Source: a virus
Taxonomy: Duplodnaviria > Heunggongvirae > Uroviricota > Caudoviricetes
Length of the DNA: 40,663 nt
Virus record (IMG/VR): IMGVR_UViG_2802429245_000006
Strand: one strand, 5' to 3'
This document shows, in pieces, positions 8,551 to 35,721 of the stretch (positions within the stretch are counted from its first letter, which is position 1; every line of letters starts with the position of its first letter). Below the pieces are notes generated by a model that saw only the letters and a list, made by a program, of their open reading frames with translations, was not told the DNA's origin and did not search any database. Made by a program: the position numbers and the translations under genes.

Positions 8551-8767
8551 CAGCTTTTCCTTACAGAGGGTGAATAAAAAAGCCGGTACCCACAAAAGTG
8601 GATACCGGCAGGTACAAAACAGCATGGTCAGATAAAGTGGTTTTTCCCGGACATAAATGCTTCCCCTCTCTCATCCGCCAGAGAAGTATCAGTCCGTTGT
8701 GTGCAATTCCGTTCTGCATGATGAAGAGATTCAGCTGCCTTTTCGCAGACCATTAACCACTATAAAC

Positions 8768-10527: not shown

Positions 10528-11112
10528 TATGTCGTATCCGTTGAAGGATTTACGCATATCGGTAATGCCGGCACCCAGCCAGATGCGGGTACCTGACGGG
10601 AGTGAGATCATTGTCCCCTCCCGCTCAGTTCACGGAGCAACACTGTGAGCAGATCTGGTGAAGGATTTTCCAGCGTCATGTTACCGTGACGGAACTCCAC
10701 CTTGCAGGAGCTGGCACTGACAGTAGTCTGGGTGGATAAAGACGGAGTAAGAGCAGCCACCGGTTCTTGCGGCTCATCCGGCGTTATCTCCACAGGTAAT
10801 AATTCAACGCCAGTGTCAGAAGAGGTTGTTACCGGAAGACGCCGCGATATACGCCCTTCGTTTTGCCAAAGTCTGAGCCATTTGAAAATAACATTATCAT
10901 TGACGCCATTTTCTCGAGCAATCTGGGCCACACAAGCACCGGGTTGTGATGCCAGTTCAACCATACGAAGTTTGAATTCATTCGAATACTTTTTACGAGG
11001 TTCTTTTCGCCAGTCCTGTAATTCCATACTTAGATGTCCGTCTGTGTCAGATGGGCGTCTAAGTTACCAATTCTTGTCTAATGGCTACATACGGCGGTCG
11101 GTTTACGCTTAC
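10528..11112 (-). mobile_element. IS66-family remnant (terminal repeat, tnpA, 5' stub of tnpB)
   Basis: Minus-strand terminus GTAAGCGTAAACC ends at 11112. tnpA is followed by a tnpB start (MISLPSGTRIW...) overlapping the tnpA stop in ATGA at 10608-10611. tnpB homology ends near 10528. Confidence 0.65.
10608..11027 (-). CDS. tnpA: IS66-family accessory protein TnpA
   Basis: 139-aa ORF with ...YSNEFKLRMVELASQPGACVAQIARENGVNDNVIFKWLRLWQNEG..., the TnpA pattern recalled from IS66-family elements. Confidence 0.65.
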   Translation of the reverse strand: MELQDWRKEPRKKYSNEFKLRMVELASQPGACVAQIARENGVNDNVIFKWLRLWQNEGRISRRLPVTTSSDTGVELLPVEITPDEPQEPVAALTPSLSTQTTVSASSCKVEFRHGNMTLENPSPDLLTVLLRELSGRGQ

Positions 11113-11865
11113 CTTGTTCTGGAAAAGCTGGAGATGAAATGGTCTCCAGAGCAAATATCAGGATGGTTAAGGCGAACAAAACCACGTCAAAAAACGCTGC
11201 GAATATCACCTGAGACAATTTATAAAACGCTGTACTTTCGTAGCCGTGAAGCGCTACACCACCTGAATATACAGCATCTGCGACGGTCGCATAGCCTTCG
11301 CCATGGCAGGCGTCATACCCGCAAAGGCGAAAGAGGTACGATTAACATAGTGAACGGAACACCAATTCACGAACGTTCCCGAAATATCGATAACAGACGC
11401 TCTCTGGGGCATTGGGAGGGCGATTTAGTCTCAGGTACAAAAAACTCTCATATAGCCACACTTGTAGACCGAAAATCACGTTATACGATCATCCTTAGAC
11501 TCAGGGGCAAAGATTCTGTCTCAGTAAATCAGGCTCTTACCGACAAATTCCTGAGTTTACCGTCAGAACTCAGAAAATCACTGACATGGGACAGAGGAAT
11601 GGAACTGGCCAGACATCTAGAATTTACTGTCAGCACCGGCGTTAAAGTTTACTTCTGCGATCCTCAGAGTCCTTGGCAGCGGGGAACAAATGAGAACACA
11701 AATGGGCTAATTCGGCAGTACTTTCCTAAAAAGACATGTCTTGCCCAATATACTCAACATGAACTAGATCTGGTTGCTGCTCAGCTAAACAACAGACCGA
11801 GAAAGACACTGAAGTTCAAAACACCGAAAGAGATAATTGAAAGGGGTGTTGCATTGACAGATTGA
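11113..11865 (+). pseudogene. insI: IS30 transposase InsI, N-terminally truncated
   Basis: Translation ...LVLEKLEMKWSPEQISGWLRRTKPRQKTLRISPETIYKTLYF...[15 protein letters not shown] is the C-terminal two thirds of the IS30 transposase. The 387-aa ORF-track frame is a chimeric read-through. Confidence 0.85.
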
Positions 11866-11872
11866 ATCTACA
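11113..11872 (+). mobile_element. IS30 3' fragment, 5'-truncated by the IS66-family insertion
   Basis: Sequence from cttgttctggaaaagctggagatgaaatgg to the terminal ...attgacagattgaatctaca matches the IS30 right half and terminal repeat. Confidence 0.85.
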
Positions 11873-12207
11873 GTAGCCTTTTTTAATATTTCATTCTCCA
11901 TTTCAATGCGTTGTAGCTTTTTCCTCAGCTCACGTATTTCGATTTGTTCTGGTGTTATCGGAGAGGCTTTTGGTGTTTTGCCCTGACGCTCATCACGCAG
12001 TTGTTTGACCCATCTTGTCATTGTGGAAAGGCCAACATCCATAGCTTTGGCGGCATCTGCCACCGTGTAGTTCTGGTCAACAACCAGTTGAGCGGATTCG
12101 CGTTTAAACTCTGCGCTGAAATTTCTTTTTTTCATTGGAGCACCTGTGTTGTTCTGAGGTGAGCATATCACCTCTGTTCAGGTGGCCAAATTCAGTGTGC
12201 CACTTCA
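11873..12207 (-). mobile_element. IS911 5' fragment (left IR plus orfA codons 1-88), interrupted by IS30
   Basis: Minus-strand end TGAAGTGGCACACTGAATTTGGCCACCTGAACAGAGGTGATATGCTCACC... and orf[47 protein letters not shown]... stop matching IS911 after ...EILKKAT at the IS30 junction (11872/11873). Confidence 0.85.
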
Positions 12208-12541
12208 CTCGAACCCCAAGACCGGCAATGGAATCGCTTTGTAGAGCTAGAGTTAGTGCCGCATCCTCGTATTGAGCACAGCGAAGCGATTGAGCTAGAC
12301 TATGGCATGACGGGGGGCGCTCTAAAGGTTGAGATTAGAGCGGCCTCGGCAGGCTACTTACTCAGACAATGGAATGTGGATTGTTCTACCAACGCCACAC
12401 TCCAAGATGGTGGAGCTCAATTGTACTTAAAGAACAGAGCAACACTTTATGGAGTTAAAAACATCATGCTAGCTCCAGGGATTGAAAAAGAACTTGGTAA
12501 CTAATGCACAAAAACGAACTTGGCGCAGGGAATAAATTTTG

Positions 12542-15500
12542 ATGAAAATAATCGATAACCTTAACAACCTATTAGGTGACGAGCTTCAACAGACGCTGAC
12601 ACCGAATACAAAGTTAAAGATTGCTGCGTCTTGCTTTTCTATTTATGCGTATGAGGCTCTCAAAAAGGAGTTAGCGAAGATAGACTCACTTGAGTTCATC
12701 TTCACATCACCTACTTTTGTCGCAGATGAAGTTACCGATAAATTCAAAAAAGAAAAACGAGAGTTCTTTATTCCCAAAGCAGGGCGTGAACGCAGCCTTT
12801 ACGGAACTGACTTTGAAATACAGTTAAAGAACAAGCTCACTCAAAAGGCGATCGCCAAAGAGTGTGCAAACTGGATCAGAAAGAAAGCGACATTCAAATC
12901 AAACAAAACTGATTCTCCAATGCAGTCGTTTGTTGTGACGGAAGCACCTAGACAGCAAACAGAGACAATGAGTGCAGTTTTTGCTCCGGTTAGCGGGTTT
13001 ACGGCGGTTGATCTAGGGTATCAGCGAGGAAATGCTATTTCGAATTTTGTGCAAAAAATCGATGAGCCAAATTTCACAGCCCAGTACTTACAGTTATTCG
13101 ACCAAATTTGGAAAGACCCTGCGAAGCTTCAAGATGTTACTAAAACAATTTGCGAGCATATAGAGTCTGTCTACCAGGAAAACTCGCCTGAGAAAGTCTA
13201 TTTCATTATTTTGTATAACATTTTTAATGAGTTCCTTGATGATATTACAGAGGATGTATTACCAAATGATCGAACCGGCTATCAGGACACCTTGATTTGG
13301 AACAAGTTATTCAACTACCAAAAAGATGCCGCGACTGGGATTATCAATAAGTTAGAGACCTATAACGGCTGCATTCTGGCTGATAGTGTTGGTCTTGGTA
13401 AAACATTTACAGCGTTAGCTGTCATCAAGTATTACGAGCTCAGGAACAAGTCCGTACTTCTACTGTGTCCGAAAAAATTGGCAGATAACTGGCTCAACTT
13501 TAATCGAAACTTAAAGACAAATATCTTTGCTAAAGACCGTTTTAGTTACGATGTTTTGTGTCACACAGATTTGAGCCGAATCTCTGGCGAATCCTTCGGT
13601 ACTCCGTTGAATAGAATAAACTGGGGTAACTATGACTTGGTCGTCATTGATGAGTCGCATAACTTTAGAAATAACGATGCAGTGAAAGATCGAGAAACCC
13701 GATATCAGAAACTGATGAATAAAGTTATTCGGGCTGGCGTGAAAACCAAAGTCCTGATGCTATCAGCGACACCAGTGAATAATAGATTTACTGACCTGAG
13801 AAACCAGCTTGCGTTAGCTTATGAAGGCGAGTCGAGCAATCTCACAAAGCATCTTAAAACCACAAAAAGCGTAGAACAGATCTTCAACCAAGCACAAGCC
13901 GCATTTAACGCTTGGTCCAAACTCGACCCAGAGACGCGAACAGCTAAAGCCATACTCGATGCCTTAGATTTCGACTTTTTTGAACTGCTTGATAGCGTCA
14001 CTATCGCTCGCTCACGAAAGCACATCACAACATTCTACGACACAACAGATATTGGCCATTTCCCTGAACGTAACAAGCCAATCTCGTTTCATTGTCCGCT
14101 TACTACTCGTTCGGATGTAGTTAGCCTGAATGAGATCTTTGAACAGCTTAAGCTACTCAAACTATCTGTTTATGCGCCAGTGAGTTATATCCTCCCGAGT
14201 AGATTGAAGAAATATGAGGAGATGTATGACACGGAAGTTGAAGGCGGAAAAGGTAAGTTAAAGCAAAGCGACCGTGAAAAAAGTTTGGTTGCATTGATGA
14301 CAACGAACCTCCTAAAGCGTCTTGAGAGCTCCGTATACTCGTTCAGAAGCACCTTGCAATCTCTCCATGATAACCATGTTCGTGTTCTAGGTATTATCGA
14401 CGAATTCTATAAGCGAGACGGGCAAACCGAAGTGAGCAGTCTCGTTGAAGCGCTAGAGTCTATTGAAGCAGATGAAGACGATATGCCTTCTTATCACGAT
14501 ATGGAAATCGGTAACAAAATCAAAATTAAGCTAATGGATATGGATCTTCCATCCTGGCAGCAGGATTTAGATGGCGATTTGGAGCTGATCAAAGGGTTAC
14601 TAGATTCTGTTAGCAAAATTAAGCCAGAAGAAGATGCTAAGTTGCAGCATCTGAAATCACATATTGCTGCAAAAATAAATAATCCGATAAATCCTGGAAA
14701 CCGGAAAATCATCGTGTTCACGGCGTTTGCTGACACCGCTCAGTATCTGTACGAGCAGTTGTCACCTGTGATGTTAAGCGAGCATAGAATCCATACTGCG
14801 ATGATCACTGGTGGTGCCAGTTTACCTAAGACCACCTTAAAAACCGGACGAAAAGGTTACGACACACAAGAAGTGCTCACCTTGTTTTCTCCAGTTTCCA
14901 AATCGAAAGCCAGTGTATTACCTGACGAACCCGCTGAAATCGATTTGTTGATTGCTACAGACTGTATCTCTGAAGGGCAGAACTTACAGGATTGCGATTA
15001 CTTAATTAACTTTGATATTCATTGGAATCCAGTTCGGATTGTTCAGCGCTTTGGGCGTGTTGACCGTATTGGCTCGGCGAATAAATGTATTCAGTTAGTT
15101 AACTACTGGCCTGATATATCGCTGGATGAGTACATCAACTTAAAAGAACGTGTTGAAAGTCGAATGACGATTGTTGACGTAACAGCGACCGGTGATGACA
15201 ACGTTCTAAGTTGTCAAGCGAATGATGTGTCGTACCGTAAAGAGCAGTTAAAGAAACTACAAGAAGAAGTCATCGAGCTTGAAGATTTAAAAACGGGGGT
15301 TTCTATCACCGATCTAGGTCTAAACGAATTTCGAATGGACCTGCTAAATCTAATGAAACTCTACGGCGAACCAAGAAATGCACCAAGCGGCATGCATGCG
15401 GTGGTTGAGGCTAAGCCAGAATTAGGGTTATTGCCTGGCGTGGTGTTTGCGCTGAAAAACGTTAATAACAGTATCGATAGAGATCTGCAAAACAGGCTCC

Positions 15501-15874
15501 ACCCTTATTACCTTGTCTATGTATCGAATGAAGGGGACATCGTCGCTAATCATTTTGAGGTAAAGAGACTATTAGATTTAATCCGAAGTAGCTGTAAAGG
15601 TCAAACAGCACCGCTCAGTGAGATTTGTGCTTTATTTAATCGCTTAACGCAAGACGGTCGAGATATGCAGTGTTACTCTCACCTTCTAACAGATGCCATA
15701 AAAAGCATGGTTGAAGTTAAGGAAGAAAAAGATATTGATAGTTTGTTCAATGGTGGCGCTACCTCAGCTTTAGTGAATACATTTGCCGGGCTTGATGACT
15801 TTGAATTGCTGGCATTTATTGTGATCCAGCAAAAGCACCTGATGGAAAATAGTGCTCAGGATGAGGTTAGCTAG
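12542..15874 (+). CDS. SNF2-family helicase/ATPase with an unassigned ~250-aa N-terminal domain
   Basis: Motif I ADSVGLGKT, motif II VVIDESHNFRN, motif III LMLSATPVNN, C-terminal helicase motifs ...TDCISEGQNLQ... and QRFGRVDRIGS; 1110 aa from the ATG at 12542. Low-GC coding sequence. Confidence 0.85.
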   Translation: MKIIDNLNNLLGDELQQTLTPNTKLKIAASCFSIYAYEALKKELAKIDSLEFIFTSPTFVADEVTDKFKKEKREFFIPKAGRERSLYGTDFEIQLKNKLTQKAIAKECANWIRKKATFKSNKTDSPMQSFVVTEAPRQQTETMSAVFAPVSGFTAVDLGYQRGNAISNFVQKIDEPNFTAQYLQLFDQIWKDPAKLQDVTKTICEHIESVYQENSPEKVYFIILYNIFNEFLDDITEDVLPNDRTGYQDTLIWNKLFNYQKDAATGIINKLETYNGCILADSVGLGKTFTALAVIKYYELRNKSVLLLCPKKLADNWLNFNRNLKTNIFAKDRFSYDVLCHTDLSRISGESFGTPLNRINWGNYDLVVIDESHNFRNNDAVKDRETRYQKLMNKVIRAGVKTKVLMLSATPVNNRFTDLRNQLALAYEGESSNLTKHLKTTKSVEQIFNQAQAAFNAWSKLDPETRTAKAILDALDFDFFELLDSVTIARSRKHITTFYDTTDIGHFPERNKPISFHCPLTTRSDVVSLNEIFEQLKLLKLSVYAPVSYILPSRLKKYEEMYDTEVEGGKGKLKQSDREKSLVALMTTNLLKRLESSVYSFRSTLQSLHDNHVRVLGIIDEFYKRDGQTEVSSLVEALESIEADEDDMPSYHDMEIGNKIKIKLMDMDLPSWQQDLDGDLELIKGLLDSVSKIKPEEDAKLQHLKSHIAAKINNPINPGNRKIIVFTAFADTAQYLYEQLSPVMLSEHRIHTAMITGGASLPKTTLKTGRKGYDTQEVLTLFSPVSKSKASVLPDEPAEIDLLIATDCISEGQNLQDCDYLINFDIHWNPVRIVQRFGRVDRIGSANKCIQLVNYWPDISLDEYINLKERVESRMTIVDVTATGDDNVLSCQANDVSYRKEQLKKLQEEVIELEDLKTGVSITDLGLNEFRMDLLNLMKLYGEPRNAPSGMHAVVEAKPELGLLPGVVFALKNVNNSIDRDLQNRLHPYYLVYVSNEGDIVANHFEVKRLLDLIRSSCKGQTAPLSEICALFNRLTQDGRDMQCYSHLLTDAIKSMVEVKEEKDIDSLFNGGATSALVNTFAGLDDFELLAFIVIQQKHLMENSAQDEVS

Positions 15875-15877
15875 TTT

Positions 15878-16564
15878 ATGAACTCACCTTGGATATTTCC
15901 TGACAACGCAAAGTTCGGTCGAGTCGTGCCTAAGAACAAAATATATGAGCACAGCGCGGCAAGCACTGGGTTGAAGTCACTTTTTGTAGAGCAAGTAGAG
16001 CAAATCCTTTGGGCTTACAAGCTATCGCCTAGCACGCTGAATATTCCTCAAACCAGTGAGGTCAGTGAAATACAGGTTTTCAGTGTGAAGCTTAAAGGTG
16101 ACTCGATAGACGACAGCGTACTAAAAGCCATTGATTTGGCGATACCTTTTCCCATTCTATTTGAGGTATGGGAAGCTCGCGGTGAGCAAGGCCACTACGT
16201 TGCTTGCTATAAGCGTAAGGCAGAAAATGATCAGTCAAAATGGTTTTGTAGCCGCTATTTACGTTCAGAAACCTTCTATTCAAGTGATTCATTAGCAGTG
16301 ACTTCAGAAGTTTTGGGTTTGCCTACCGCTATCGATATGGCGGAGCTGTATCAAAAGCTTCTTACTCGCTTGTTACCCATACCCCAACGAGCCGCTGAGA
16401 GTATAGAAGAGGCTATTCAACGCCTGGAGGCAATTCAGGCATTGGAAAAGCAAATCTCGCAATATAAGAAGAAGGTTCATGCCGAGAAACAGTTTAACCG
16501 CAAGGTTGAGCTCAATAAGCAGTTAAAGAATTTAAGGTGCGAGCTTCAAGAGTTACTCGCATAA
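15878..16564 (+). CDS. Small accessory protein (DUF4391-like, with C-terminal coiled coil)
   Basis: 228-aa ORF starting 3 nt after the helicase stop. Family assignment is from recalled gene neighbourhoods, not a verified match. Confidence 0.55.
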   Translation: MNSPWIFPDNAKFGRVVPKNKIYEHSAASTGLKSLFVEQVEQILWAYKLSPSTLNIPQTSEVSEIQVFSVKLKGDSIDDSVLKAIDLAIPFPILFEVWEARGEQGHYVACYKRKAENDQSKWFCSRYLRSETFYSSDSLAVTSEVLGLPTAIDMAELYQKLLTRLLPIPQRAAESIEEAIQRLEAIQALEKQISQYKKKVHAEKQFNRKVELNKQLKNLRCELQELLA

Positions 16565-16637
16565 AGAATAAACAATTTCAATCAGTTAAATAGTGCCACA
16601 TGCTTTTTATGCAAGGCATCACGCAAAAGGTGAACAC

Positions 16638-18629
16638 ATGGACAAATTAAAGATGCACAGCCCCGACATGACGCAGCAAAACATAGAGAAAATTCAGGCG
16701 TTGTTTCCGAACTGTGTGACGGAATCAAGAGGAGCTAACGGAGAGCTAAAGTTAGTCATTGATTTTGACCAACTTAAACAAGAGCTATCAAATTCAATCG
16801 TTGAAGGCCCGCAAGAGCGCTATCAGCTGAACTGGCCCGGTAAGCGAGAAGCACTACTAACAGCGAATGCACCTATTGCCAAAACCTTAAGACCTTGTCG
16901 AGAAGAAAGTGTCAATTTTGACACCACTAAAAACCTCTTTATTGAAGGCGATAACCTTGATGCATTGAAACTGCTACAAGAGGCATATATTGGAAAAGTC
17001 AAATTAATATATATTGATCCACCTTATAACACCGGTAATGACTTTATATATGAAGACGATTTTTCTGAAAATGCAGAGAGCTTCTTAATAAAGTCCAACC
17101 AGAAAGATAGTGATGGTAATAAATTAGTAGCGAATACAGAAGCTAATGGCAGATTTCACTCGGATTGGCTAAGCATGATGTACTCACGTTTGAAATTGGC
17201 TCGTAATCTACTAAGTGATGAAGGAGCTGTGATTATCTCAATTGATGAGAATGAACACAGCAACATAGTGAAATTAGGTGGTCTTATATTTGGCGATGAA
17301 AACTTTTGTGGCGAAATAGTCTGGAAAAATAGTAGTAAAAATGACCAGAAATATGTCTCAATACAACACGAATACCTTGTTATATTTGTTAAATCAAAGC
17401 AAAACAATAAGGGGGATTGGGTTGAGAAAAAAGAAGGCCTAGACCAAATTTATCAAGCGTTTGATGGTTTTAAACGCAAACATGGCAATGACTGGGATGC
17501 AATACATGCAGATGCGCTTGAATGGTATAGGAGTTTCCCTGCATCCAATCCAATTTCATCAAGTAAACATTATAGCTGGATGGACGAGCGCGGTGTATAT
17601 TTCCCAGATAATATTTCAGGCCCAAACGATGGTCAGTATGTTTATGACGTCATCCATCCTGTGACTAACAAACCATGCAAAATGCCTTCTACAGGATGGC
17701 GCTATCCAGAATCAACGTTAATTGAAAGAATAGCTGATAATCGAGTGCACTTTGGAAAGGATCATAAAACTGTTCCAAACAATAAAACGTATCTAAAAGA
17801 TACTGAATATCAGAGCCTTACGAGCATGCGCTTCGTTGATGGTCGCAGCGCTTCTAAAAGGCTGCAAACCCTTTTCGGTGATAAAGTTTTTACAAACCCT
17901 AAAGATGAAATTTTATTAAAAGATTTATTTAAAGCAATTGGTGTATCAGAAAAAGATATAGTCCTTGATTTCTTTGCAGGTTCTGCATCGACGATACATG
18001 CTGTTTTTGAACTCAATAAAGAAACTGGCAGTAATTGTTCGTGTATCCTAGTGCAGCTTCCAGAAGATCTGAAAGAAATGTTAAAAACGGCTAAAGGTTC
18101 TGCTAAGAAAGTCACGCAGAACGCTATCAATTATTTGAAAAATAAAGGCCTACCACAAACAATTAGTGAAATTGCAAAAGAACGTATTCGACTTTCGGGG
18201 CAAAAGTATACCGAAGATTTCGATATTGGATTCCGAGTTCTCAAAGTAGATACCTCCAACATGGCGGATGTGTACTACTCTCCAGATCAAGTTACTCAGG
18301 GTTCGTTAGACTTATTGGTAGATAATATTAAAGCAGACCGCACTGATGAAGATTTACTTTTCCAGGTTCTACTTGATTGGGGCGTCGATTTAACCTTGCC
18401 AATTAGAAAAGAAACGATTCAAGGTAAATCGGTATTCTTTGTCGATGATGATGCACTGGTGGCCTGTTTTGATCTGCGCATAAATGAAGCTTTGATTAAA
18501 GAGTTAGCCACAAAAGAGCCACTTCGCGTAGTGTTCCGTGATGACGGCTTTGAGTCTGATGCAGTAAAAATCAATGCTGAGCAGATTTTCAAGCAAGTGT
18601 CGCCACATACTGAAGTTAAAGCGATATAA
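16638..18629 (+). CDS. mod: Type III Mod-like N6-adenine DNA methyltransferase (beta class)
   Basis: Catalytic motif [12 protein letters not shown] precedes AdoMet motif [12 protein letters not shown], the order typical of Type III Mod. ATG at 16638 with AAGGTG upstream; the ORF-track frame begins 15 codons earlier. Confidence 0.85.
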
Positions 18630-18638
18630 GGAGGGATC

Positions 18639-18728
18639 ATGACAAATTTTACCGGATTAAAATTTGCACACAGCCTTGTCGCAGACAAGGTGTGCCCGAA
18701 GTGTTGCGTACATGGAGGTGCGCAATGA
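18639..18728 (+). CDS. Possible 29-aa leader peptide (uORF) coupled to res
   Basis: ATG at 18639 is 4 nt after AGGAGG; translation [29 protein letters not shown]; its TGA overlaps the res ATG (ATGA at 18725-18728). Confidence 0.3.
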
Positions 18729-21700
18729 AACTTAAGTTCAAAGTCCAACCTTATCAAACTGTTGCCGTAGAGTCGGTTGTTGACTGCTTTGCGGGGCAAC
18801 CTAACACATCCGGCGTTACCTACCGAATCGACCCTGGCGTTGCCAAGGATAAGTTTGGCAATGCTGGTTGGGATATGAGCGACCAAGACGGTTTTAAAAA
18901 TGCAGAACTCGCGATCACTGAATCGCAGTTATTGCAAAATATTCATGGTGTTCAAAGTAGACAGAACCTCCCTGTTTCAGAAGCGTTAGTCAGCAATGCT
19001 AGCGCTAAGATTAATCTCGATGTTGAAATGGAAACCGGTACTGGTAAGACATATTGCTACATCAAAACCATCTTTGAGATGAATAAGCGCTATGGCTGGA
19101 GCAAATTTATTATCGTTGTGCCTAGCATCGCCATTCGTGAAGGTGTTTACAAGTCGCTGCAAATCACAGGTGAGCATTTTGCTCAGAATTACGACGGTAA
19201 AAAGGCCCGGTTCTTTATCTATAACTCGAAACAATTGCACCAGTTAGAGAGTTTTTCTTCTGACAGTGGCATCAATGTGATGGTCATTAATATTCAAGCC
19301 TTTAATGCTTCAGGAAAAGACAATAGACGTATTTATGAAGAGTTGGATGACTTTCAGTCTAGGCGTCCTATTGATGTTATTAGTGCAAACCGTCCAATCC
19401 TGATTTTGGATGAGCCACAAAAGATGGAAGGCAAGAAGACATTAGATGCCTTAGCCAAATTCAAACCACTGATGGTACTTCGATATTCGGCCACGCATAA
19501 GACAACACATAATAAAGTGCATCGCCTGGATGCGCTTGACGCTTATAACAATAAGCTGGTTAAGAAAATTGCCGTTCGTGGTATTTCAGTAAAAGGCTTG
19601 GCGGGAACGACAGCCTATCTATATTTGGAATCCATCGAGATCTCGAAAAAAATGCCAGTGGCTCGCATTGAGATCGAAGTTAAACAACAAAATGGTATTA
19701 AACGCATACCCAAGAAGGTTACTAAGGGCGATAATCTTTTTGATCTTAGCAATGGTCTGGACCAGTACCGTGACTTTGTGGTTACTGATGTCAACGCGAT
19801 TAACGACACGGTTGAATTCAAAAATGGCCATGTTTTAACCACGGGCGATGCGACGGGAGACGTGACCGAAGAGACCATTCGCCGAATACAGATCCGCGAG
19901 ACAATTAAAGCGCACCTTGAAAAAGAAAAAACACTTTTTAACCAGGGTATAAAGGTTCTCTCTCTCTTTTTTATTGACGAAGTCGCAAAGTATAGGGACT
20001 ACTCTCAAGCCGATGAAAAAGGTGATTATGCTCGCGTTTTTGAAGAAGAGTACTCCTTGCTTGTACAGGAATATCTTGATGAGTTGACTCTTTTACCGAG
20101 TGAGCAGACTGATGCCTATAAAGCCTATCTATCGGCCATTGAAGGCTCCAGAACGCATAATGGTTACTTCTCAATTGATAAGAAATCAAATCGTCTTCAG
20201 AACCCCGGCTTTAAAGTCCGTGGTGAAGATGCCGGGCTATCAGACGATGTAGATGCTTATGATTTGATTCTAAAAGATAAGGAAAAGTTACTTTCGTTTG
20301 AAGAGCCTACTCGGTTTATCTTTTCACATTCGGCCTTGCGCGAGGGGTGGGATAATCCAAACGTATTTGTCATGTGTATGTTAAAACACAGCGACAACAC
20401 TATCTCTCGTCGTCAAGAAGTTGGGCGTGGTTTACGTCTGGCCGTCAATAAACATGGTGACAGACAAGACCATCCGGCAACTGTGCATGAAATTAATGTT
20501 TTGTCGGTGATTGCAAGTGAAAGCTATAAAGACTTTGTCACGAATCTGCAAAAAGAGATCAGCGAGTCTCTCTCAGCGAGACCTAGAAAAGCAGATGAAG
20601 CTTATTTTACGGGTAAGACAATTACAACAGCTGATGGACCTGTAGAAGTAACACCTGTCATGGCTAAGCAAATTTATAAGTATTTGCTTAAAAATGATTA
20701 TACCAATGACGTTGACGATTCAATTGCGCCATCATTCCACCAGGCTAAGGCTAGTGGACAGTTAGCGCCAATGCCTGCTGAGTTAGAGCCTTACCGCGAG
20801 CAAATATTGACCCTGATTGACGGTGTTTATAGTGAAGCGCAATTGCCAGGTGTTGGTGATGATCGTAAACCTAAAAACAATCCGTTGAATGCTAATTTTG
20901 ATAAGAAAGAGTTTCAGGAGCTTTGGCACAAAATCAATCGCAAAGCGGTTTATAAGGTTGATTTTGATTCGTCTGAGTTGATTAAAAATTGTATTCGGGT
21001 ACTCAATAAAGAGCTTAAGGTAACGCCTCTTCAGTACACGATTCAAGATGGTGTTCAATTGGATGGCATTACCGACGAACAACTCAAAGCTGGACAAAGT
21101 TTCAAGGTGAAAAACACTGAGACTGAAACTCATCAATCGAGCATTCATTCTGCTGTTCGTTATGACTTGGTTGGTAAGTTGGCTGAAAATTGTGTGCTGA
21201 CTCGCAAAACAGTCGCCGAAATACTGATGGGTATAGAACCTGTAGTATTTGCACAATTTAAGCAGAACCCTGAGCATTTTCTCGCTGAGGCTTCACGCCT
21301 TGTGAAAGAGCAAAAGGCATCTGTGATCATCGAGAAGCTATCATATGATCCAACGAACGAATCTTATGATGTTGATATATTCACGGCAGAGCAAAAAATC
21401 ACTGATATGACAAAAGCCGTTAGTGGCGTTAATAAGCATATTTATGATTATGTTGTCGTTGATTCACAAGGCATTGAACGGGACTTTGTTACCGAGCTTG
21501 ATACAAGCAAAGAAGTCGTGGTTTATGCAAAACTGCCTCGTGGTTTTCTGATACCGACGCCTGTTGGCGACTACAACCCTGATTGGGCGATTTCTTTCAA
21601 AGAAGGAAGTGTTAAACACATTTACTTTATTGCAGAGACTAAAGGAACGATGTCTTCGCTTGAATTGCGTGGCATAGAAGATCGCAAGATTGAATGTGCT

Positions 21701-21802
21701 AGGAAATTCTTTGAAAAAATTAATGCAGAGATAACGAGTGAAAACGTCAAATATGATGTTGTAACGAGTTACTCGAAATTAATGGAAGTCATAAGCGGTT
21801 AG
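18725..21802 (+). CDS. res: Type III Res-like restriction subunit (helicase plus C-terminal PD-(D/E)xK nuclease)
   Basis: Walker [11 protein letters not shown], motif [13 protein letters not shown]-like RYSATHK, motif [12 protein letters not shown]-terminal ...NPDW...FIAETKG nuclease-like motif. ATG at 18725 with GGAGG upstream. Confidence 0.85.
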
Positions 21803-21823
21803 TTGTTTTCGTTTTTATATCGG

Positions 21824-21856
21824 GCTGTCAGTTCATCTGGCTGACAGCTCACTTTT
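21824..21856 (+). terminator. Putative intrinsic terminator after res
   Basis: Stem gctgtcag/ctgacagc (21824-21831 / 21841-21848) followed by a short T-rich tract. Confidence 0.4.
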
Positions 21857-22077
21857 AGTTACATAAAAATAATTGAAAAATTGAGTCAGCAGATTGAGTC
21901 TAAATGTCGCTCACTCATGCGGTTATATTTTAAGTATGGTTGTTGACATGACGGAGAAATAGCATGAATCCTGAAAAGTGAATCGCCACGGATAATTTAG
22001 ACACTTCCGAGCCGTTGATGGACTGACCCCACCTCGGTAGACGATCCTGCCCTATAGTTTGAGTATAGGGGGAGCAT

Positions 22078-22362
22078 ATGGGCACACCACGATTTACACC
22101 TGAATTTAAGGAAGAAGCCGTCCGACAGATAACGGAACGCGGTTATTCCGTTGCCGAAGTATCTGACCGTCTGGGCGTTTCTGCCCACAGCCTCTACAAG
22201 TGGCTACGGGCTATCAAACCGGATAACAGCGAGCAGCATGCCCGGGATTTACTGGAAGCCAAAAGCGAGATCCTGAAACTACGGGCGCAGCTAAAACGTA
22301 CCGAAGAAGAACGGGATATCCTGAAAAAGGCCGCGCGGTACTTTGCAAGGGAGCCCGACTGA
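22078..22362 (+). CDS. IS3-family transposase OrfA (HTH)
   Basis: 94-aa ORF MGTPRFTPEFKEEAVRQITERGYSVAEVSDRLGVSAHSLYKWLR... ending in a leucine-zipper-like region. Confidence 0.8.
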   Translation: MGTPRFTPEFKEEAVRQITERGYSVAEVSDRLGVSAHSLYKWLRAIKPDNSEQHARDLLEAKSEILKLRAQLKRTEEERDILKKAARYFAREPD

Positions 22363-22400
22363 AGTACCGCTTTATCAATGAGCACCGCACTGTATGGGGT

Positions 22401-23213
22401 GTGATGACAATGTGTCGGGTACTGGATGTCGCCCGGGCCGGGTTCTACGCGTGGCTGCATAACCCGGTCTCGGCACGTGATAAAGATAATCAGCGTCTGC
22501 TGACGCTTATCCGTGACTCCTATTCACTGAGCGGAGGCGTATACGGTTACCGGCGGGTTCATGGCGACCTGAACGAAATCGGGGAAACCTGCGGTAAAAA
22601 CCGGGTGGGCCGTATTATGCAACTGAACCGGATTAAAGCCGTGCGCGGCTATAAAGCGCCGCGTCGTATCGCTGGCAGACCTTCAGTGGTTGCCCCTAAT
22701 CGCGTGCAGCGGCAGTTTACTGTTGTCCGGGCCAATCAGGTCTGGGTCACCGACATTACTTATTTCCGCACCTGGCAGGGCTGGCTGTATCTGGCGGTGG
22801 TTATCGATCTCTTCGCCCGTAACGTGGTGGGCTGGTCGATGAAGCCCACTCTCTCACGCGAACTGGCGTTGGATGCACTGATGATGGCGGTCTGGCGACG
22901 TAAACCCGACGGCGAGGTCATCGTGCACTCAGACCAGGGAAGCCAGTACGGCAGTGACGACTGGCAGCGCTTCTGCCGGGCTAATAACCTGGTCCCGAGC
23001 ATGAGCCGGCGTGGCAACTGCTGGGATAATGCGGTGGCCGAATCGTTCTTCAGTTCACTGAAAAAAGAGCGCATCAGGAAGAGAATATACAAAACCCGGG
23101 ATCTAGCCCGGGCGGATATCTTCGATTACATTGAAGTGTTCTACAACCGGGCCCGGCGCCACAGTCACCTCGGCGGCGTCAGTCCGGAGGCCTTTGAACA
23201 GGCCTCGTCGTGA
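22401..23213 (+). CDS. IS3-family transposase OrfB (DDE integrase core), expressed by -1 frameshift from orfA
   Basis: The frame is open from about 22320; DDE-region motifs ...WVTDITYF...HSDQGSQY...CWDNAVAESFF... The annotated start is a GTG. Confidence 0.8.
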   Translation: MMTMCRVLDVARAGFYAWLHNPVSARDKDNQRLLTLIRDSYSLSGGVYGYRRVHGDLNEIGETCGKNRVGRIMQLNRIKAVRGYKAPRRIAGRPSVVAPNRVQRQFTVVRANQVWVTDITYFRTWQGWLYLAVVIDLFARNVVGWSMKPTLSRELALDALMMAVWRRKPDGEVIVHSDQGSQYGSDDWQRFCRANNLVPSMSRRGNCWDNAVAESFFSSLKKERIRKRIYKTRDLARADIFDYIEVFYNRARRHSHLGGVSPEAFEQASS

Positions 23214-23971: not shown

Positions 23972-24535
23972 TCAGTTATGTCGTGGTCGGCCCCGGTTAC
24001 TTTTTTCGGGAAGCCTGCTACGGCCCAGAATAATACCGTGTTCTTTCTGATCCTGTTTAGCCAGGTAGCTGAGGGCGTAACGTAAGTCGTCTACCGCAGA
24101 CTTATCACTATAGTGAATCACGTGATCGATACACACAGGGTATTTGTCTTTAGCCCGGCAAAGGTGAAAATAACCATCCCCTTCCGTGATCCGCCTCCAG
24201 ATATCTCCCAGTTGCCTGGATATCTGATAAGAGTTCTTGTGACGTTGTCCATCCAGGTAGCCGATAAAATGAATATGAAGCCCTTTGTTTGGTGTATATT
24301 CCATAACCCAGTAATATCCCACCAACATCGTCTGGGTTTCGCTAAGTAAGCGGTATATTTCCATACACATACTGTGCTTACAGGAATGCCCGAAACTGGG
24401 CGTGTCTTTCCTGTAGGCAAAATCAATTCTGAAAGGTAACAGTTTAGAAAAACGTTGAAACAACCCCTCCATGTGTTCATTCACATCTTTCAGAATCGCG
24501 AAATTCATTTCGTAATTGGGATTGGCATTATACAT
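23972..24535 (-). CDS. yfjJ: YfjJ/YagK-family protein (inovirus Gp2-like)
   Basis: 187-aa ORF with ATG at 24535 and AAGGAC upstream; sequence and position next to a yfjI-like gene match the CP4-57 layout. Confidence 0.7.
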   Translation of the reverse strand: MYNANPNYEMNFAILKDVNEHMEGLFQRFSKLLPFRIDFAYRKDTPSFGHSCKHSMCMEIYRLLSETQTMLVGYYWVMEYTPNKGLHIHFIGYLDGQRHKNSYQISRQLGDIWRRITEGDGYFHLCRAKDKYPVCIDHVIHYSDKSAVDDLRYALSYLAKQDQKEHGIILGRSRLPEKSNRGRPRHN

Positions 24536-25411: not shown

Positions 25412-26845
25412 TCAGAGGTCAAAGTTAGGTGCGACATACCACGTTTTTCCCTCAATAACCGGTACAACTCTGTTTTGTTCATACAGTAAATCCAGTAACC
25501 AATTGATTTTATCCTTTTTCCGGAAACGGTTCGGACCACGCTGTAAAATGTCATTTTTTTTCATACAGGGGATCCCCTTCTCAATGCAATAGCTTTTTAT
25601 CCAGTTAAAAAGTTCAAGCTCCTCTGGAATGAGTCGCACAGGTACGGTCAGGGCAGAGTTTTCAAACGTTAACGGACTGGATAACCGAACATACTCATTA
25701 CCATACCATATTGCTAATTCTCTCGCCATTTCAGCAGTGTAGGGGGAAATGTCACCTTCCTCACCGCTAAAATGGTGAATAAGTCCTGCCAGTCTTGCCA
25801 TATACTCTGCATTTTTAGCAGCATATTCTCTGAAGTCTCTTAAAGGCCCCAGAACCGACATCTTCGATTCCACATCGTTGTAATAGTCCGTCCAGATTCT
25901 GGCTGCCTGAGGAGAAAAGTGAAGGCAACGCCGCTCTCCCCTCATCGCCAGGCTTTCATCAATGAGTTCATTTATCCTCTGTTCAAACAAATCCTGATAC
26001 TGTGATGAATAATTATCTCCGGTTATTATCCTTGTCCCCTGCGTTGATGTTGGTTGACACATCAAAAACCTTGCATGATGTCCCGACGTTTTCACAAGTT
26101 CTTTTTTTCGTGTACAAAAACCTTTGTGGTAAACATCAGGCTGAACCATCACCGATATCGTCAGTCTTGGTTCCTTCAAAAAAATTCCGGGAGATGATTT
26201 CCTGTCGATGAAAAGAGAACCACCATCCCACAAAGAGTTAAGTATTCCCAGTTTACTCATTGCCCGGCTGTCAAAAATTATCCCACCTTCACTGGATACA
26301 AGAGCAAAAGAGCGATTGCTATCAGAATAATATTTTAACATTCCCTCTATCGTTGTATCATTAAAAATTGTTCGATGTATCTGTGGTGGAACAGGACACT
26401 TATTCAGATGTGTTTTAAGCTCTGATTCTGTTGTCTTATAATCTTTACCGGCACGAATCTCTTTATGAAGTTTTGACTCCAGTGCTTTTTGTTTTTGCTC
26501 CCATATTTCCTTTTCTGTACTGTAATTCTCAACCAGTTTCGCGTATTCTTCCGCCAGGGCTTCATCCCTGAGATAAAATGCTTTCATAAACACTTTATCC
26601 ACGGTCGTTTTCCTTTCACCAGAATCAGCCAGAATCATAGAGTAAATATTAGAGGACCCACGTAAATTTCCTGGCCTGCACACATCAACCTGATTCTGAC
26701 AGGCAATTGACATCGCTGTTAATGCTGCAGTTATCGCCATAGCTATAGGTGTCTGTGTATTCTTTTGAGTTTCAATTATTGCATTTCTCGCCAGCGGTGG
26801 CATTGCATATATCGGACAAGGATTTTCTGGTGCAAGTAAGCACAT
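25412..26845 (-). CDS. yfjI: YfjI-like protein (DUF3987 family)
   Basis: Long ORF; ATG at 26845 with GAGG upstream is preferred over the ORF-track start at 26863. Position between alpA and yfjJ matches CP4-57. Confidence 0.7.
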   Translation of the reverse strand: MCLLAPENPCPIYAMPPLARNAIIETQKNTQTPIAMAITAALTAMSIACQNQVDVCRPGNLRGSSNIYSMILADSGERKTTVDKVFMKAFYLRDEALAEEYAKLVENYSTEKEIWEQKQKALESKLHKEIRAGKDYKTTESELKTHLNKCPVPPQIHRTIFNDTTIEGMLKYYSDSNRSFALVSSEGGIIFDSRAMSKLGILNSLWDGGSLFIDRKSSPGIFLKEPRLTISVMVQPDVYHKGFCTRKKELVKTSGHHARFLMCQPTSTQGTRIITGDNYSSQYQDLFEQRINELIDESLAMRGERRCLHFSPQAARIWTDYYNDVESKMSVLGPLRDFREYAAKNAEYMARLAGLIHHFSGEEGDISPYTAEMARELAIWYGNEYVRLSSPLTFENSALTVPVRLIPEELELFNWIKSYCIEKGIPCMKKNDILQRGPNRFRKKDKINWLLDLLYEQNRVVPVIEGKTWYVAPNFDL

Positions 26846-27420
26846 AAATGCCTCTCTTTTCATTAATGGGTTAGTAAAGTAGCAGCAACTCCCGCTATAA
26901 TAGCGAAAATAGCTGCTGTTCAGACCTAATGTTCTGAAAAATACAGAATATCTGTAGATCTGATGTTTAATAACCGATAAGGTTAATTCAGTTCAGACTG
27001 TGTTATTTACCACGAAATATCATTCATGTTTCTCATTCTTAACACCTCCTAAAATTATTTCACTAACACCTTCCCCCCGGTCTTTTTCCTTTCTCAGGAA
27101 TCAGCCAGAACCATAGTGTAAATATTAACGGGCCCACGTAAATTTCCGGAGCTGCACACGTCAATCTGATTCTGACAGGCAATTGACATCGCTGTTAATA
27201 ATGATGTTGTAGTCATAGCCAGAGATGCTTTTTCATTTTGTTGAGTTTCAATTATTGCATTTCCAGTCATTGATGGTTGCGCATATACTGGATACGGAGT
27301 ATCCGGTTTGATGTAAGACATAAATATTCCCTTTTTTCGTAATGACTTTCGGTTATAGCAGCTATTTCCGCTACAATAGCAACAATAGCTGCTATACAGA
27401 CTGGATATACTGAAAATACA
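26603..27420. repeat. Tandem imperfect direct duplication (~350 bp, roughly 75-80% identical) of the yfjI promoter-proximal and 5' coding region
   Basis: 26603-26940 aligns with 27076-27420 by eye (for example gacaggcaattgacatcgctgttaat and gagtttcaattattgcattt occur in both). Confidence 0.75.
27094..27321 (-). pseudogene. Truncated duplicate of the yfjI 5' end
   Basis: 75-aa ORF MSYIKPDTPYPVYAQPSMTGNAIIETQQNEKASLAMTTTSLLTAMSIACQNQIDVC... parallels the N-terminus of the full gene and ends inside the duplicated block. Confidence 0.6.
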
Positions 27421-28346: not shown

Positions 28347-29978
28347 ATGGTAACTCGGACAATGCAACAAAAGTATGATCGTGTTTTATCTGGCGAATCC
28401 CATCCATTCCCTGGCATATACGAGGCGGTTTCCGAACAACTCCTTTTGCTCATCTTTAAGGCTCGTCAGCTATATCAGAATCCAGAATATCGCCCCTGGT
28501 TTGAAGAACAGCACAGAGTTCTCTCTGCATTACGTGCTAATACAGAGCTCTTGAGAATATTTAGAGAACAAAGAAACGCGGAAGAACCAGAGCTTATTAT
28601 TAAAGAATCTACATTACCCCTACTCACTAATTCTAATCTTACAGATGCGCTTAATATTATGTGCCATTTATACAATGGTTTTGATGAAGGAAATATCAGT
28701 CTGAAAACCTGGGGGGCGATGCAAGAGGTACAGACAACATCAACCTTTATCAGCCCGGGACCGAGAACCTGGAAAACACCTGAACTGGCAAAGTTTGTAG
28801 GAGATGATTTATTTAATATTCTGACTGAATGTAAAGCCTGGAGTTCACCAATTCCAGCAGAAACCCGACAGGGCTATTGCCATCAGGATCTGTCTGTTGC
28901 ACACTCCTGCACCTCAGAGTTACTGGCACACCTGAATCAATACCATGAAATTGATGAATCAGCAATACTTGCCAGAGTTATTGGTATGACGGTTAACGGA
29001 TTCTACAAGAAAAATAATACAGACCTCCCAGAATGGCTATCCCCCTTTAAAGAGGAACATAAAATATTCAGAGATTGTCTGGAGCAAAAGACCGAGGATG
29101 TAATCAGACTGAAAGAACAACTGTTGAAAACAGGACGTTCAGAATTCGTGAATAATTTGTGTCGGGTCGCCAACTGGTATGAAATTAAGTCAATATACGA
29201 TGAATATGTCCGTCTTTATGCCAATGAAATCATTGGTTGGTTCAACAAAACCATGGAATATTTTAAACCAACAGATTTTATCCGATATACATGGAAATTC
29301 GCAACAGTTACTCCAGGTAAAGAGACAGAAACCAAGCATACAACTGCATGGGAAAAGGATTATTGCCAGATAACTATACAACGTGATGAACTTCTGAGAT
29401 TGATTCACACGAATACCCTTCAGGATGCAGTAATTTATCTTTGCCATTGTCTGCAGAAGAAATACAAGAAATCATCCCAAAATGAGATAGAGTTTCCAGG
29501 AATAAAACCTCCGGCATCAGAGAGTGAAATTAATATAACAGATAGTTTTGAATTTTATTCTCTCCTGGAGCTCAGTAAAGATAATGAGAGACGGCTGGAA
29601 ACATTTCAAAAATGGTATGAAAAAAATAAAGTTTTGTTAGAAAGTCATAAACAAAAACGAACAGAGAAGATTGACGTTGCCGTACGACTTGTAGGGCTGA
29701 AAGCCTATGATCTGCATGAAGGGATTCCGGATAGTCCAAAACGAAAAGTTAAAGATGGCATAAATGAAGACATCAAAGCCGATACCAGTTTACGCCTGCC
29801 AAAGACAAATATAAGTGATACGTCGCTAAACCGTTATCGCCGCACTGTTAAGGAGATTATCAATAACGAAATCGACGCATTCCTGTTGGAACAGAAGAAA
29901 AAAAATAAAAGATTTCCCTACAGTGAAGATAGAGATGTGATTCGACCTTTATGGGGAAAATGCCTGACCGGGCAGTAG
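28347..29978 (+). CDS. Hypothetical protein, 543 aa, low GC, function unknown
   Basis: Long clean ORF in AT-rich DNA, divergent from alpA; no motifs recognised. A second possible ATG lies at 28362. Confidence 0.6.
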   Translation: MVTRTMQQKYDRVLSGESHPFPGIYEAVSEQLLLLIFKARQLYQNPEYRPWFEEQHRVLSALRANTELLRIFREQRNAEEPELIIKESTLPLLTNSNLTDALNIMCHLYNGFDEGNISLKTWGAMQEVQTTSTFISPGPRTWKTPELAKFVGDDLFNILTECKAWSSPIPAETRQGYCHQDLSVAHSCTSELLAHLNQYHEIDESAILARVIGMTVNGFYKKNNTDLPEWLSPFKEEHKIFRDCLEQKTEDVIRLKEQLLKTGRSEFVNNLCRVANWYEIKSIYDEYVRLYANEIIGWFNKTMEYFKPTDFIRYTWKFATVTPGKETETKHTTAWEKDYCQITIQRDELLRLIHTNTLQDAVIYLCHCLQKKYKKSSQNEIEFPGIKPPASESEINITDSFEFYSLLELSKDNERRLETFQKWYEKNKVLLESHKQKRTEKIDVAVRLVGLKAYDLHEGIPDSPKRKVKDGINEDIKADTSLRLPKTNISDTSLNRYRRTVKEIINNEIDAFLLEQKKKNKRFPYSEDRDVIRPLWGKCLTGQ

Positions 29979-35443: not shown

Positions 35444-35721
35444 CCTCTTTACATTCATTACAAATAATTGTGAATATATTCTATTACCGATGTCTGCTAT
35501 GCGAATACATGCAACCAAGTGCAATGTTGTATAAAATATGCCGTGACAACTTCAGTGCTGATAATTCGTGTTAATGTATTTACTTCCTTTGGTCGGGATT
35601 TATGTAGCATGCCGGAAAATCTATTTTTTTCCGGCATCTTTTTGTTTGCAGAATTTAAAACGGTATATTATCGCCGTACGGATCATCATTCCCCGACTGT
35701 TGTTTTGCCCTGTTCAGTGCG

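Follow-up and report, generated by a model that had tools for sequence, protein, structure and literature searches.

Restriction-modification (R-M) enzymes of Type III are textbook two-subunit machines, and their ATP-triggered sliding communication is well studied. The locus analyzed here raises the question of whether such an enzyme can form one half of a larger, four-gene system. In IMG/VR virus record IMGVR_UViG_2802429245_000006 (Caudoviricetes; 40,663 nucleotides, the whole of which is referred to below as the window), genes encoding a Type III modification subunit (Mod) and restriction subunit (Res) are preceded by genes for a large SNF2-family ATPase, hereafter the helicase, and a small protein of the DUF4391 family. 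An earlier note, made from the DNA sequence, had read the four as a candidate composite defence operon and had left open whether the arrangement was already named; no name for it was found in the indexed literature. In our judgement, the locus is probably one integrated, mobile and expanded Type III R-M system, and the cassette is a widespread, unnamed Type III R-M variant rather than a categorically new system.

Gene order and co-diversification of the four-gene operon

Between positions 12542 and 21802 the window contains four intact open reading frames (ORFs), all in one direction (Table 1). The ORF listing bears out the tight spacing described earlier, 3 nt in the case of the helicase and DUF4391 genes, and hidden Markov model (HMM) searches recovered every Pfam domain that had been predicted. 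A single intrinsic terminator closes the operon, and no terminator-like site was found on the + strand inside the four genes. This single terminator and the tight or overlapping joining of the genes support their integration.

A scan of one genome per species with a DUF4391 profile yielded 301 confirmed loci, and the best 80 (42-91% identity) were kept. These span alpha-, beta-, gamma- and deltaproteobacteria, Myxococcota, Planctomycetota, Bdellovibrionales and a Clostridiaceae metagenome-assembled genome, and their ORFs were searched with the four window proteins. The helicase gene lies upstream of DUF4391 in all 78 loci having upstream sequence, mod lies downstream in 73 of 73 loci, and res in all 51 loci that have 9 kb or more. 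Of the 80 loci, 69 show the complete set of four genes, the others being cut by contig ends, and strand and order are uniform throughout. DUF4391 follows the helicase directly in 77 of 78 loci, the remaining one having a gap of ~310 nt, and an inserted gene between the two was found in none of the 80. The only case of a separated pair that we have seen is E. coli NCTC11121, where an IS3 stands between helicase and DUF4391 (our locus L101, 6721-17119). We infer that DUF4391 is an inseparable, obligate partner of the SNF2 helicase.

The arrangement extends to loci in which DUF4391 identity falls to 23-39%. There, the annotated order is a small helix-turn-helix (HTH) regulator, a 'helicase-related protein', DUF4391, a site-specific methyltransferase and Res, and it is found on plasmids of Enterococcus, Lactococcus, Paraburkholderia and Mycolicibacterium, in Listeria with a 185-aa DUF4391-like ORF, and on the archaeal plasmid pMETHO01 (Methanomethylovorans).

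Pairwise-distance matrices from 50 loci correlate strongly between helicase and DUF4391 (r = 0.90), helicase and Res (0.88) and DUF4391 and Res (0.85), and at 0.68-0.75 with the conserved parts of Mod. The composite reading had been said to fall if the first two genes were not co-conserved with Mod/Res. Since order and strand are kept in every long enough locus of the 80 species-level genomes, distant phyla included, and the distance matrices agree at r = 0.85-0.90, this objection is decisively contradicted. The four genes have diversified together and do not form a chance neighbourhood.

On these grounds we hold, with moderate to high confidence, that the helicase-DUF4391 pair represents a dedicated accessory module of this Mod/Res clade and not a neighbouring system. 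Synteny, co-diversification and the substitution of the helicase by another SNF2 protein (see below) argue that the pair is integral. That it would be accessory and not core is indicated by a related three-gene system, Eco86II, whose extra ATPase is dispensable for methylation and absent from the active nuclease fraction (PMC8259958).

Table 1. Coordinates of the four-gene operon and of its borders in the window
Feature	Position	Strand	Evidence
Left boundary insertion sequence (IS) remnants	10702..12171	.	rve-domain ORF 10702-11865 (Pfam); IS3/IS110-like fragment to ~12216
brxR (WYL-type) regulator, 3' remnant, last 97 codons	12211..12504	+	98% identical to residues 215-311 of the 311-aa BrxR of a V. 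cholerae SXT integrative and conjugative element (ICE)
SNF2-family ATPase, 'helicase-related protein', 1110 aa	12542..15874	+	Pfam SNF2-rel_dom and Helicase_C, above gathering cut-offs
DUF4391 protein, 228 aa	15878..16564	+	Pfam PF14335, E = 6.5e-55
Type III Mod methyltransferase, beta-class, 663 aa	16638..18629	+	Pfam N6_N4_Mtase; PADLOC MTase_III PDLC03634, 729 bits, 1.6e-219, full length
Upstream ORF (uORF), 29 codons	18639..18728	+	Within 86-bp insertion; stop overlaps res ATG (ATGA); no Pfam match
Type III Res, superfamily 2 (SF2) ATPase with C-terminal PD-(D/E)xK nuclease, 1025 aa	18725..21802	+	Pfam ResIII and RE_endonuc; PADLOC REase_III PDLC03647, 1163 bits, full length
Intrinsic terminator closing the operon	21822..21850	+	12-bp stem (6 GC pairs) followed by T run, 20 nt past res stop
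Right boundary IS3-family element	22078..23213	+	orfA 22078-22362, orfB 22401-23213; HTH_21, rve, rve_2, rve_3 (Pfam)

Properties of the four proteins and of the mod-res junction

All motifs named in the earlier note were found in the proteins. In the helicase, motifs I, II, III and VI are intact (GLGKT at residue 284, DESH at 370, SAT at 408 and QRFGR at 835), and its relatives in the PDB are RapA, SMARCA5, CHD1L and Rad54. The protein is 100% identical to that of plasmid pHNAH968. It matches the PADLOC model PDLC01075, 'C3a139 HKD+Snf2', over its full length (1.7e-121), a model that a Bacillus homologue matches too; the PADLOC models for DrmD, BrxH, HmaA, DpdE and ZorD match the helicase core only. 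PDLC01075 is a candidate label only.

The helicase N-terminal domain (residues ~1-250) is conserved from E. coli to Enterococcus, with FS..A, G88, N97, K115, F153, G159 and N164 invariant, and the C-terminal region (~860-1110) is likewise conserved and has no recognisable fold. Pfam searches at E <= 10 with the isolated N-terminal, middle and C-terminal segments gave no match, and a profile search of the N-domain against PDB sequences returned only the start of the SNF2 core. An AlphaFold2 (AF2) model of the N-terminal 255 residues reached a mean predicted local distance difference test score (pLDDT) of 36, from a shallow alignment of homologues 72-82% identical. An active HKD nuclease in the helicase is unsupported, because residues 1-250, for which the domain model has only this low pLDDT, contain no HxK(x)4D motif or Pfam PLD match and their first His is at position 205.

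The DUF4391 protein scores 187 bits against PF14335 (gathering cut-off 29.9) over profile positions 3-232 of 232, and matched none of the PADLOC and NCBIfam models. Its AF2 model (pLDDT 73.7) comprises an alpha/beta domain (residues ~10-130) with the invariants FGRxxPKxKIYEH, E64/Q66, D86, E96 and YKR, a disordered loop (133-152) and a long C-terminal helical hairpin holding an invariant EKQFNRK. Foldseek searches of this fold against PDB and BFVD returned nothing at E <= 0.001, and a profile search against PDB sequences gave no match. The family is large, with 2620 clusters (50% identity) matching the profile at E <= 1e-3. In the indexed literature, no functional study of DUF4391 was found; the name appears once by mistake for DUF7941 and once as a mere table row in a comparative-genomics paper, which lists the family as enriched in Actinomyces strains non-permissive for TM7x.

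Some members of the family depart from this architecture. In Listeria monocytogenes pCFSAN004330 and its relatives, and on some Enterococcus plasmids, the ORF at the DUF4391 position has only 185 aa, is annotated as 'hypothetical' and matches query residues 7-117 (L094, 7508-8065); the C-terminal hairpin may be dispensable or replaced in this short form. Among cluster representatives, P0351 (729 aa) joins the N-terminal half of an SNF2 helicase to DUF4391, and P0248 (720 aa) consists of DUF4391 followed by ~500 residues without Pfam match. These two architectures could be deletions, gene-call artefacts or true fusions.

Mod shows the motif order of a beta-class enzyme, with motif IV (DPPY, residue 127) followed by a variable target-recognition domain (TRD) and motif I (DFFAGS, residue 446). 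Its start is most likely the ATG at 16638 and not the GTG at 16593, as all relatives begin with MDKLKMH in the alignment. The N- and C-terminal parts are conserved and the central TRD is hypervariable; it is also the TRD that forms the divergent stretch among otherwise ~97%-identical cassettes.

Res is homologous to EcoP15I Res (4zcf_C, 8e-75) and carries ETGTGKT (residue 105), DEPQ (229), SAT and PD...ETK (952-973). Alignment with relatives places its start at the ATG at 18725 and not at 18692, the resulting 1025 aa matching theirs. RefSeq names close homologues 'type III restriction-modification system endonuclease'. The score of 401.5 bits against the NCBIfam Type III Res equivalog PRK15483 lies below the cut-off of 564, which marks a divergent subfamily rather than a different fold. 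From these features we have high confidence that Mod and Res would act as Type III enzymes do.

The four genes evolve at different rates. Identity to distant proteobacterial loci is highest in the helicase (~72%) and Res (~68%) and falls to ~49% in Mod and ~44% in DUF4391. Among close relatives, the ratio of nonsynonymous to synonymous substitution rates (dN/dS) is about as low in Res (~0.04) as in the helicase (~0.05), and reaches ~0.2 in DUF4391. Purifying selection on the helicase is very strong, and for a defence gene the protein is remarkably constrained, its N- and C-terminal regions included. Positive selection on DUF4391 was rejected, given a dN/dS of ~0.2 and a synonymous rate (dS) that is raised too. 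Its divergence fits allele exchange or recombination centred on mod and spilling over; such recombination around the Mod TRD is suggested by the climb of dS from the outer genes toward the TRD.

The junction between mod and res, which lies directly 3' in the same operon, is unusual. Relatives have TAA-GGAGGGAGC-ATG, a spacer of 9 nt. In the window (18630-18724), an 86-bp insertion, absent from three aligned relatives, separates the mod stop and Shine-Dalgarno sequence from the res start codon, 8 nt upstream of which it contributes a GGAGG of its own. The uORF that had been described as bridging the two genes is real, and it exists because this copy has the insertion. E. coli strain ET300 has the insertion on a plasmid (94% identical); no further E. 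coli record with it was found, and the idea that it is a mobile repeat was rejected on that account. Overall, the window copy looks functional at the protein level, to judge from its four intact ORFs and a helicase identical to that of pHNAH968, although brxR is mostly lost and the mod-res junction is unusual.

Related systems, mechanism and competing explanations

The classical Type III enzymes EcoP15I and EcoP1I share with the cassette the placement of Mod before Res, a beta-class Mod with a central TRD and a Res combining SF2 and PD-ExK domains. They differ in that the cassette has two additional, strictly co-conserved upstream genes and a BrxR or small HTH regulator. The Res subfamily is divergent as well: with P1-type Res the alignment covers only 52-73% of the length, and the P1-type systems form a separate two-gene group.

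A closer parallel was described by Murray et al. (2021), who reported that the N4-methylcytosine (m4C) Type III systems Eco86II and BspHIV, and many putative homologues, encode a third, helicase-like ATPase 5' of mod (PMC8259958). This ATPase was co-localised with Mod/Res in >500 genomes and had no assigned function, and Type III behaviour, with hemimethylation at an asymmetric site and ATP-dependent cutting ~25 bp 3' of one of two unmethylated sites in inverse orientation, was demonstrated for Eco86II in the same study. An SF2/SNF2-like ATPase 5' of mod is common to these systems and the cassette. In Eco86II/BspHIV, however, the ATPase gene lies immediately 5' of mod, DUF4391 is not mentioned, and motif I of Mod reads 'FGG' (PMC8259958), whereas all DUF4391-linked Mods examined have DFF(A/S/C)GS. 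Going by the motif I difference alone, we infer that Eco86II/BspHIV is a DUF4391-less sister form. In E. coli NCTC86, Eco86II is not at leuX, and this strain was not among the helicase matches listed.

What seems to be the same sister form occurs on plasmid p7 of Rhizobium sp. NLR16a, which encodes an HTH protein, a DrmD-type SNF2 protein (949 aa), Mod, a DUF262 protein and Res, and lacks DUF4391 (L092, 2648-11976). Its Mod and Res fall in the same HMM families as those of the window (607 and 973 bits), its SNF2 protein scores 706 bits against PADLOC DrmD, and motif I of its Mod is DFFGGS. It probably corresponds to the published three-gene m4C systems. Because a non-orthologous DrmD-type SNF2 fills the helicase position in this variant, the Mod/Res clade would seem to need an SNF2 motor. 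Taken with the other variants described here, this suggests that the clade habitually works with such a motor, that two unrelated SNF2 lineages have been recruited, and that DUF4391 is specific to one of them.

The likeness to DISARM and DrmD that the earlier note had pointed out is a reasonable lead. DISARM class 1 likewise encodes an SNF2 ATPase beside an amino-methyltransferase in a methylation-based defence, and the same Mod/Res clade pairs with a true DrmD-type SNF2 and can adjoin DrmA-DrmB. On plasmid pMRY14-0045_1 of Bacillus cereus, genes for DrmA and a DUF1998 protein (DrmB) stand directly 5' of helicase-DUF4391-Mod-Res (L090, 1-11970; L095, 10908-15001), with no DrmC annotated nearby; this locus may be a DISARM/Type III-variant hybrid. 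The window helicase itself, however, is not DrmD, with 152.5 bits against the NCBIfam model DISARM_DrmD (cut-off 610) and a partial PADLOC DrmD match (residues 575-857). Moreover, the nuclease of the cassette is a Type III Res and DUF4391 is not a DISARM component. No DrmA, DrmB or DrmC was found in the window operon; its four proteins contain no DUF1998 or PLD domain, and IS elements flank it.

Pairing of an SNF2 protein with a methyltransferase recurs in defence (PMC12839542, PMC12458937, PMC11232893). BREX type 3 (BrxHII and PglXI), ARMADA (ArmA and ArmB), Hma (HmaA and HmaB) and the DUF499-centred BR systems all combine an SNF2 motor with a DNA methyltransferase. Their methyltransferases are, in contrast, PglX-like or 5-methylcytosine (m5C) enzymes, their partners are PglZ, BrxC/DUF499, a YprA helicase or HmaC, neither DUF4391 nor a Type III Res is present, and helicase likeness is partial, confined to the core. 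BR systems and ARMADA were rejected as the identity of the cassette, the core components being different. PglX, PglZ, BrxC (DUF499) and YprA-type helicase domains were not found in the four proteins, and only the brxR remnant is common to BREX.

Other defence genes occur inside the operon. In ~18 of the 80 loci, co-directional defence genes are wedged between mod and res, and similar insertions are found between DUF4391 and mod (see below). They encode OLD-type AAA_15/TOPRIM with DUF2130, SIR2 with HerA, UvrD-like helicases, S8 peptidase, Fic, Schlafen/AlbA_2 with HATPase_c_4, and one 581-aa protein without Pfam match; loci with such genes include L016, L026, L038, L039, L045, L047, L051, L053, L058, L070 and L071. 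Type I R-M loci are known to host other defences, and this operon likewise acts as a docking site for them. In many genomes these embedded genes, together with BrxR upstream and the location in SXT ICE hotspot 5 (see below), provide a defence context.

A distant helicase relative (29% identity) on plasmid p3 of Planktothrix agardhii is followed by a gene for a 711-aa hypothetical protein, without DUF4391-Mod-Res (L097, 7653-13235). This pair may be the separate two-gene 'HKD+Snf2' candidate meant by the PADLOC label.

From homology, Mod would be a dimer-forming beta-class amino-methyltransferase with a swappable TRD that recognises a short asymmetric site and labels the DNA of the host, and Res, an EcoP15I-like SF2 ATP switch with a PD-ExK nuclease, would bind Mod and cut unmarked DNA. 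For the pair we propose, with low confidence, the role of an ATP-driven double-stranded DNA translocase that is tethered by DUF4391 and aids the Type III reaction in vivo. The SNF2 protein would be catalytically active, with DUF4391, probably via its helical hairpin, linking it to DNA or to the Mod-Res machinery. The task of the pair in vivo would be to open up invading DNA to the diffusion-dependent Type III reaction or to make it processable, for instance through removal of bound proteins or by driving communication between sites. The core enzyme would cut and methylate in vitro without the pair, and the cell would never keep the core without the motor. Expression would normally be gated by the upstream BrxR/HTH regulator, which is truncated here.

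Several points weigh against one integrated system of this kind. In the literature, neither an experiment on the four-gene form nor a physical interaction was found; the clearing of roadblocks would extend what is known of SNF2 enzymes and of Type III sliding; and the N- and C-terminal domains of the helicase and the DUF4391 N-domain, for which no recognisable fold and no PDB match was obtained, may hide a nuclease or a sensor. Furthermore, the halves of the operon are separable: ~18 of the 80 loci hold 2-6 kb of other co-directional defence genes between DUF4391 and mod, and some Mod-Res pairs of this Res subfamily, one of them beside an IS, occur without the helicase. Both of these last observations would be expected if two independent systems travelled together, a self-sufficient Type III R-M system and, separate from it, a two-gene SNF2/DUF4391 module that has a target of its own and serves in defence or maintenance. 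PADLOC does list the helicase family as a candidate of its own, the Planktothrix relative has a different partner and no Mod/Res, and in the related system Mod methylates alone and the Mod+Res fraction cuts without the extra ATPase (PMC8259958). Such an arrangement is nevertheless unlikely, given synteny that holds without exception in 80 species and in different phyla and domains, the co-diversification of helicase and Res, and the replacement of the helicase by a different SNF2 family at the same position. Insertions, moreover, equally split mod and res, which are certain partners, and no nuclease, toxin or NADase domain is detectable in the helicase or DUF4391.

The faster evolution of DUF4391 relative to its neighbours would also be expected if the protein contacted variable invader factors, the pair sensing or removing Type III inhibitors (DNA mimics or DNA-coating proteins) or triggering a backup when Mod-Res is blocked. 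It is established that SNF2 enzymes such as the RapA- and Mot1-type remodelers strip proteins from DNA; the islands that hold the cassette contain antirestriction genes as well, and the mobile genetic elements that carry it meet each other. We consider such a guard quite unlikely, since dN/dS is still far below 1 and the raised dS accompanying the divergence points to recombination near the Mod TRD and not to positive selection. Searches of helicase and DUF4391 turned up no domain of a sensor or an effector, and no experimental hint was found. Very improbable, in our view, is a role in self-protection, whereby the pair would keep methylation and restriction in step when the element reaches a new host, or remove Mod-Res from the host's DNA to prevent autoimmunity. 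The cassette is indeed nearly always on transmissible elements (ICEs, phage-plasmids, conjugative plasmids and islands), the operon begins with the helicase gene, and dedicated regulators, BrxR or a small HTH protein, lie upstream. Classical Type III systems of P1-type elements, however, manage establishment without an SNF2/DUF4391-like pair. The regulator is truncated in the window and in the phage-plasmids, yet the four genes are intact, and Mod alone methylated fully in the related system (PMC8259958).

An integrated, expanded Type III R-M system therefore remains the reading that we prefer. A bolder version of it, that the SNF2-DUF4391 pair is the functional heart of a distinct, ancient restriction class bridging Type III R-M and DISARM, with a motor required in vivo and recruited by a DUF4391 protein of new fold, is possible but doubtful. 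If true, the motor would change the cutting rules of Type III enzymes, for instance so that DNA that is coated with protein, has a single site or resists Type III enzymes in some other way could be attacked, and DUF4391 would be a new adaptor or sensor, or a cryptic nuclease. A deeply conserved form of Type III R-M keeps a second, SNF2-type motor and a candidate new-fold protein across Bacteria and into Archaea, implying that the textbook picture of Type III enzymes lacks part of how they work in the cell. Half of the conserved genes of the cassette are without assigned function. Defence-finding tools now call the Mod/Res half only, the helicase staying a stray candidate and DUF4391 unannotated. 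The cassette offers a tractable entry to the question of why DISARM, BREX type 3, ARMADA and Hma pair a methyltransferase with an SNF2 ATPase.

Mobility, flanks and the surrounding island

A block of ~9.8 kb (window ~12211-21989) is present at ~97% identity in nine E. coli genomes, homology with plasmid-borne cassettes stopping at ~21989. Most of these copies adjoin repA on plasmids of ~110-130 kb with dnaE and other phage-type replication genes, which we read as SSU5-like phage-plasmids; one copy lies in a chromosomal island with the same neighbours as in the window. Beyond E. coli, DUF4391 homologues 85-92% identical to that of the window occur in Vibrio, Proteus, Providencia, Morganella, Shewanella, Salinivibrio and Marinomonas. 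The order in V. cholerae is BrxR-helicase-DUF4391-Mod-Res-Mrr, between the rumAB side and traI, that is, in hotspot 5 of SXT/R391 ICEs. This hotspot is reported always to carry phage defence (bioRxiv 10.1101/2020.12.16.423150), and for ICEMprChn1 it has been listed with a helicase of 3333 bp, a hypothetical gene of 687 bp, a methyltransferase, a Type III R subunit and a restriction endonuclease (PMC5122569). With copies on phage-plasmids, on SXT ICEs and on another E. coli chromosome, the proposal that the cassette is horizontally acquired cargo is well supported.

In total, the module was found in 87 of 5426 complete E. coli genomes, in at least three divergent lineages: the window type, the CFT073/83972 type, which is located at a tRNA-Leu gene beside ahr and idnK (the leuX site), and the NCTC11121 type. 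Carriers of the cassette thus comprise SXT/R391 ICEs, SSU5-like phage-plasmids, conjugative plasmids and chromosomal islands, including that of the workhorse strain E. coli CFT073. Some of these carriers, namely SXT/R391 ICEs, phage-plasmids and the Listeria and Enterococcus plasmids, also move antibiotic resistance.

As had been proposed, the cassette is bracketed by IS remnants on the left and by an IS3-family element on the right (Table 1); window positions 12000-12216 match IS3/IS110 transposase fragments in many E. coli records. Upstream of the helicase, only the last 97 residues of BrxR are left and a full-length BrxR precedes the V. cholerae cassette, from which we conclude that brxR was cut at the IS junction. 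In the E. coli phage-plasmid copies, a WYL/BrxR pseudogene is cut to similar length (L001, 2954-3250). The remnants in the phage-plasmids and the window have nearly the same length, which suggests that phage-plasmids and chromosomal islands have exchanged the regulator-less cassette as a unit. No good match to a sigma-70 promoter was found upstream of the window cassette.

The claim that the locus is more AT-rich than its surroundings holds on some sides only. GC content is 0.37-0.44 over 10-22 kb, lower than in the IS3 element (0.56) and in the sequence on the left (0.53-0.58), but the island genes at 24-30 kb are equally AT-rich.

The surrounding island is CP4-57-like, with an Ag43/AIDA-type autotransporter gene (5701-8625) and a weak YagK/YfjJ-like match (23972-24535). 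Further to the right lie a DUF3987 gene (25412-26863) and a tyrosine integrase gene (30791-32107), the integrase notwithstanding which no tRNA gene was found anywhere in the window. Between these two genes, an ORF of 543 aa (28347-29978, + strand), in a stretch that is strongly AT-rich and AT-skewed (GC 0.38, AT skew 0.22), had no Pfam or PHROG match. Past the integrase is a phage- or satellite-like block, within which a major capsid protein E is encoded at 34397-35524 and a primase-like protein with DUF927 at 36704-38842.

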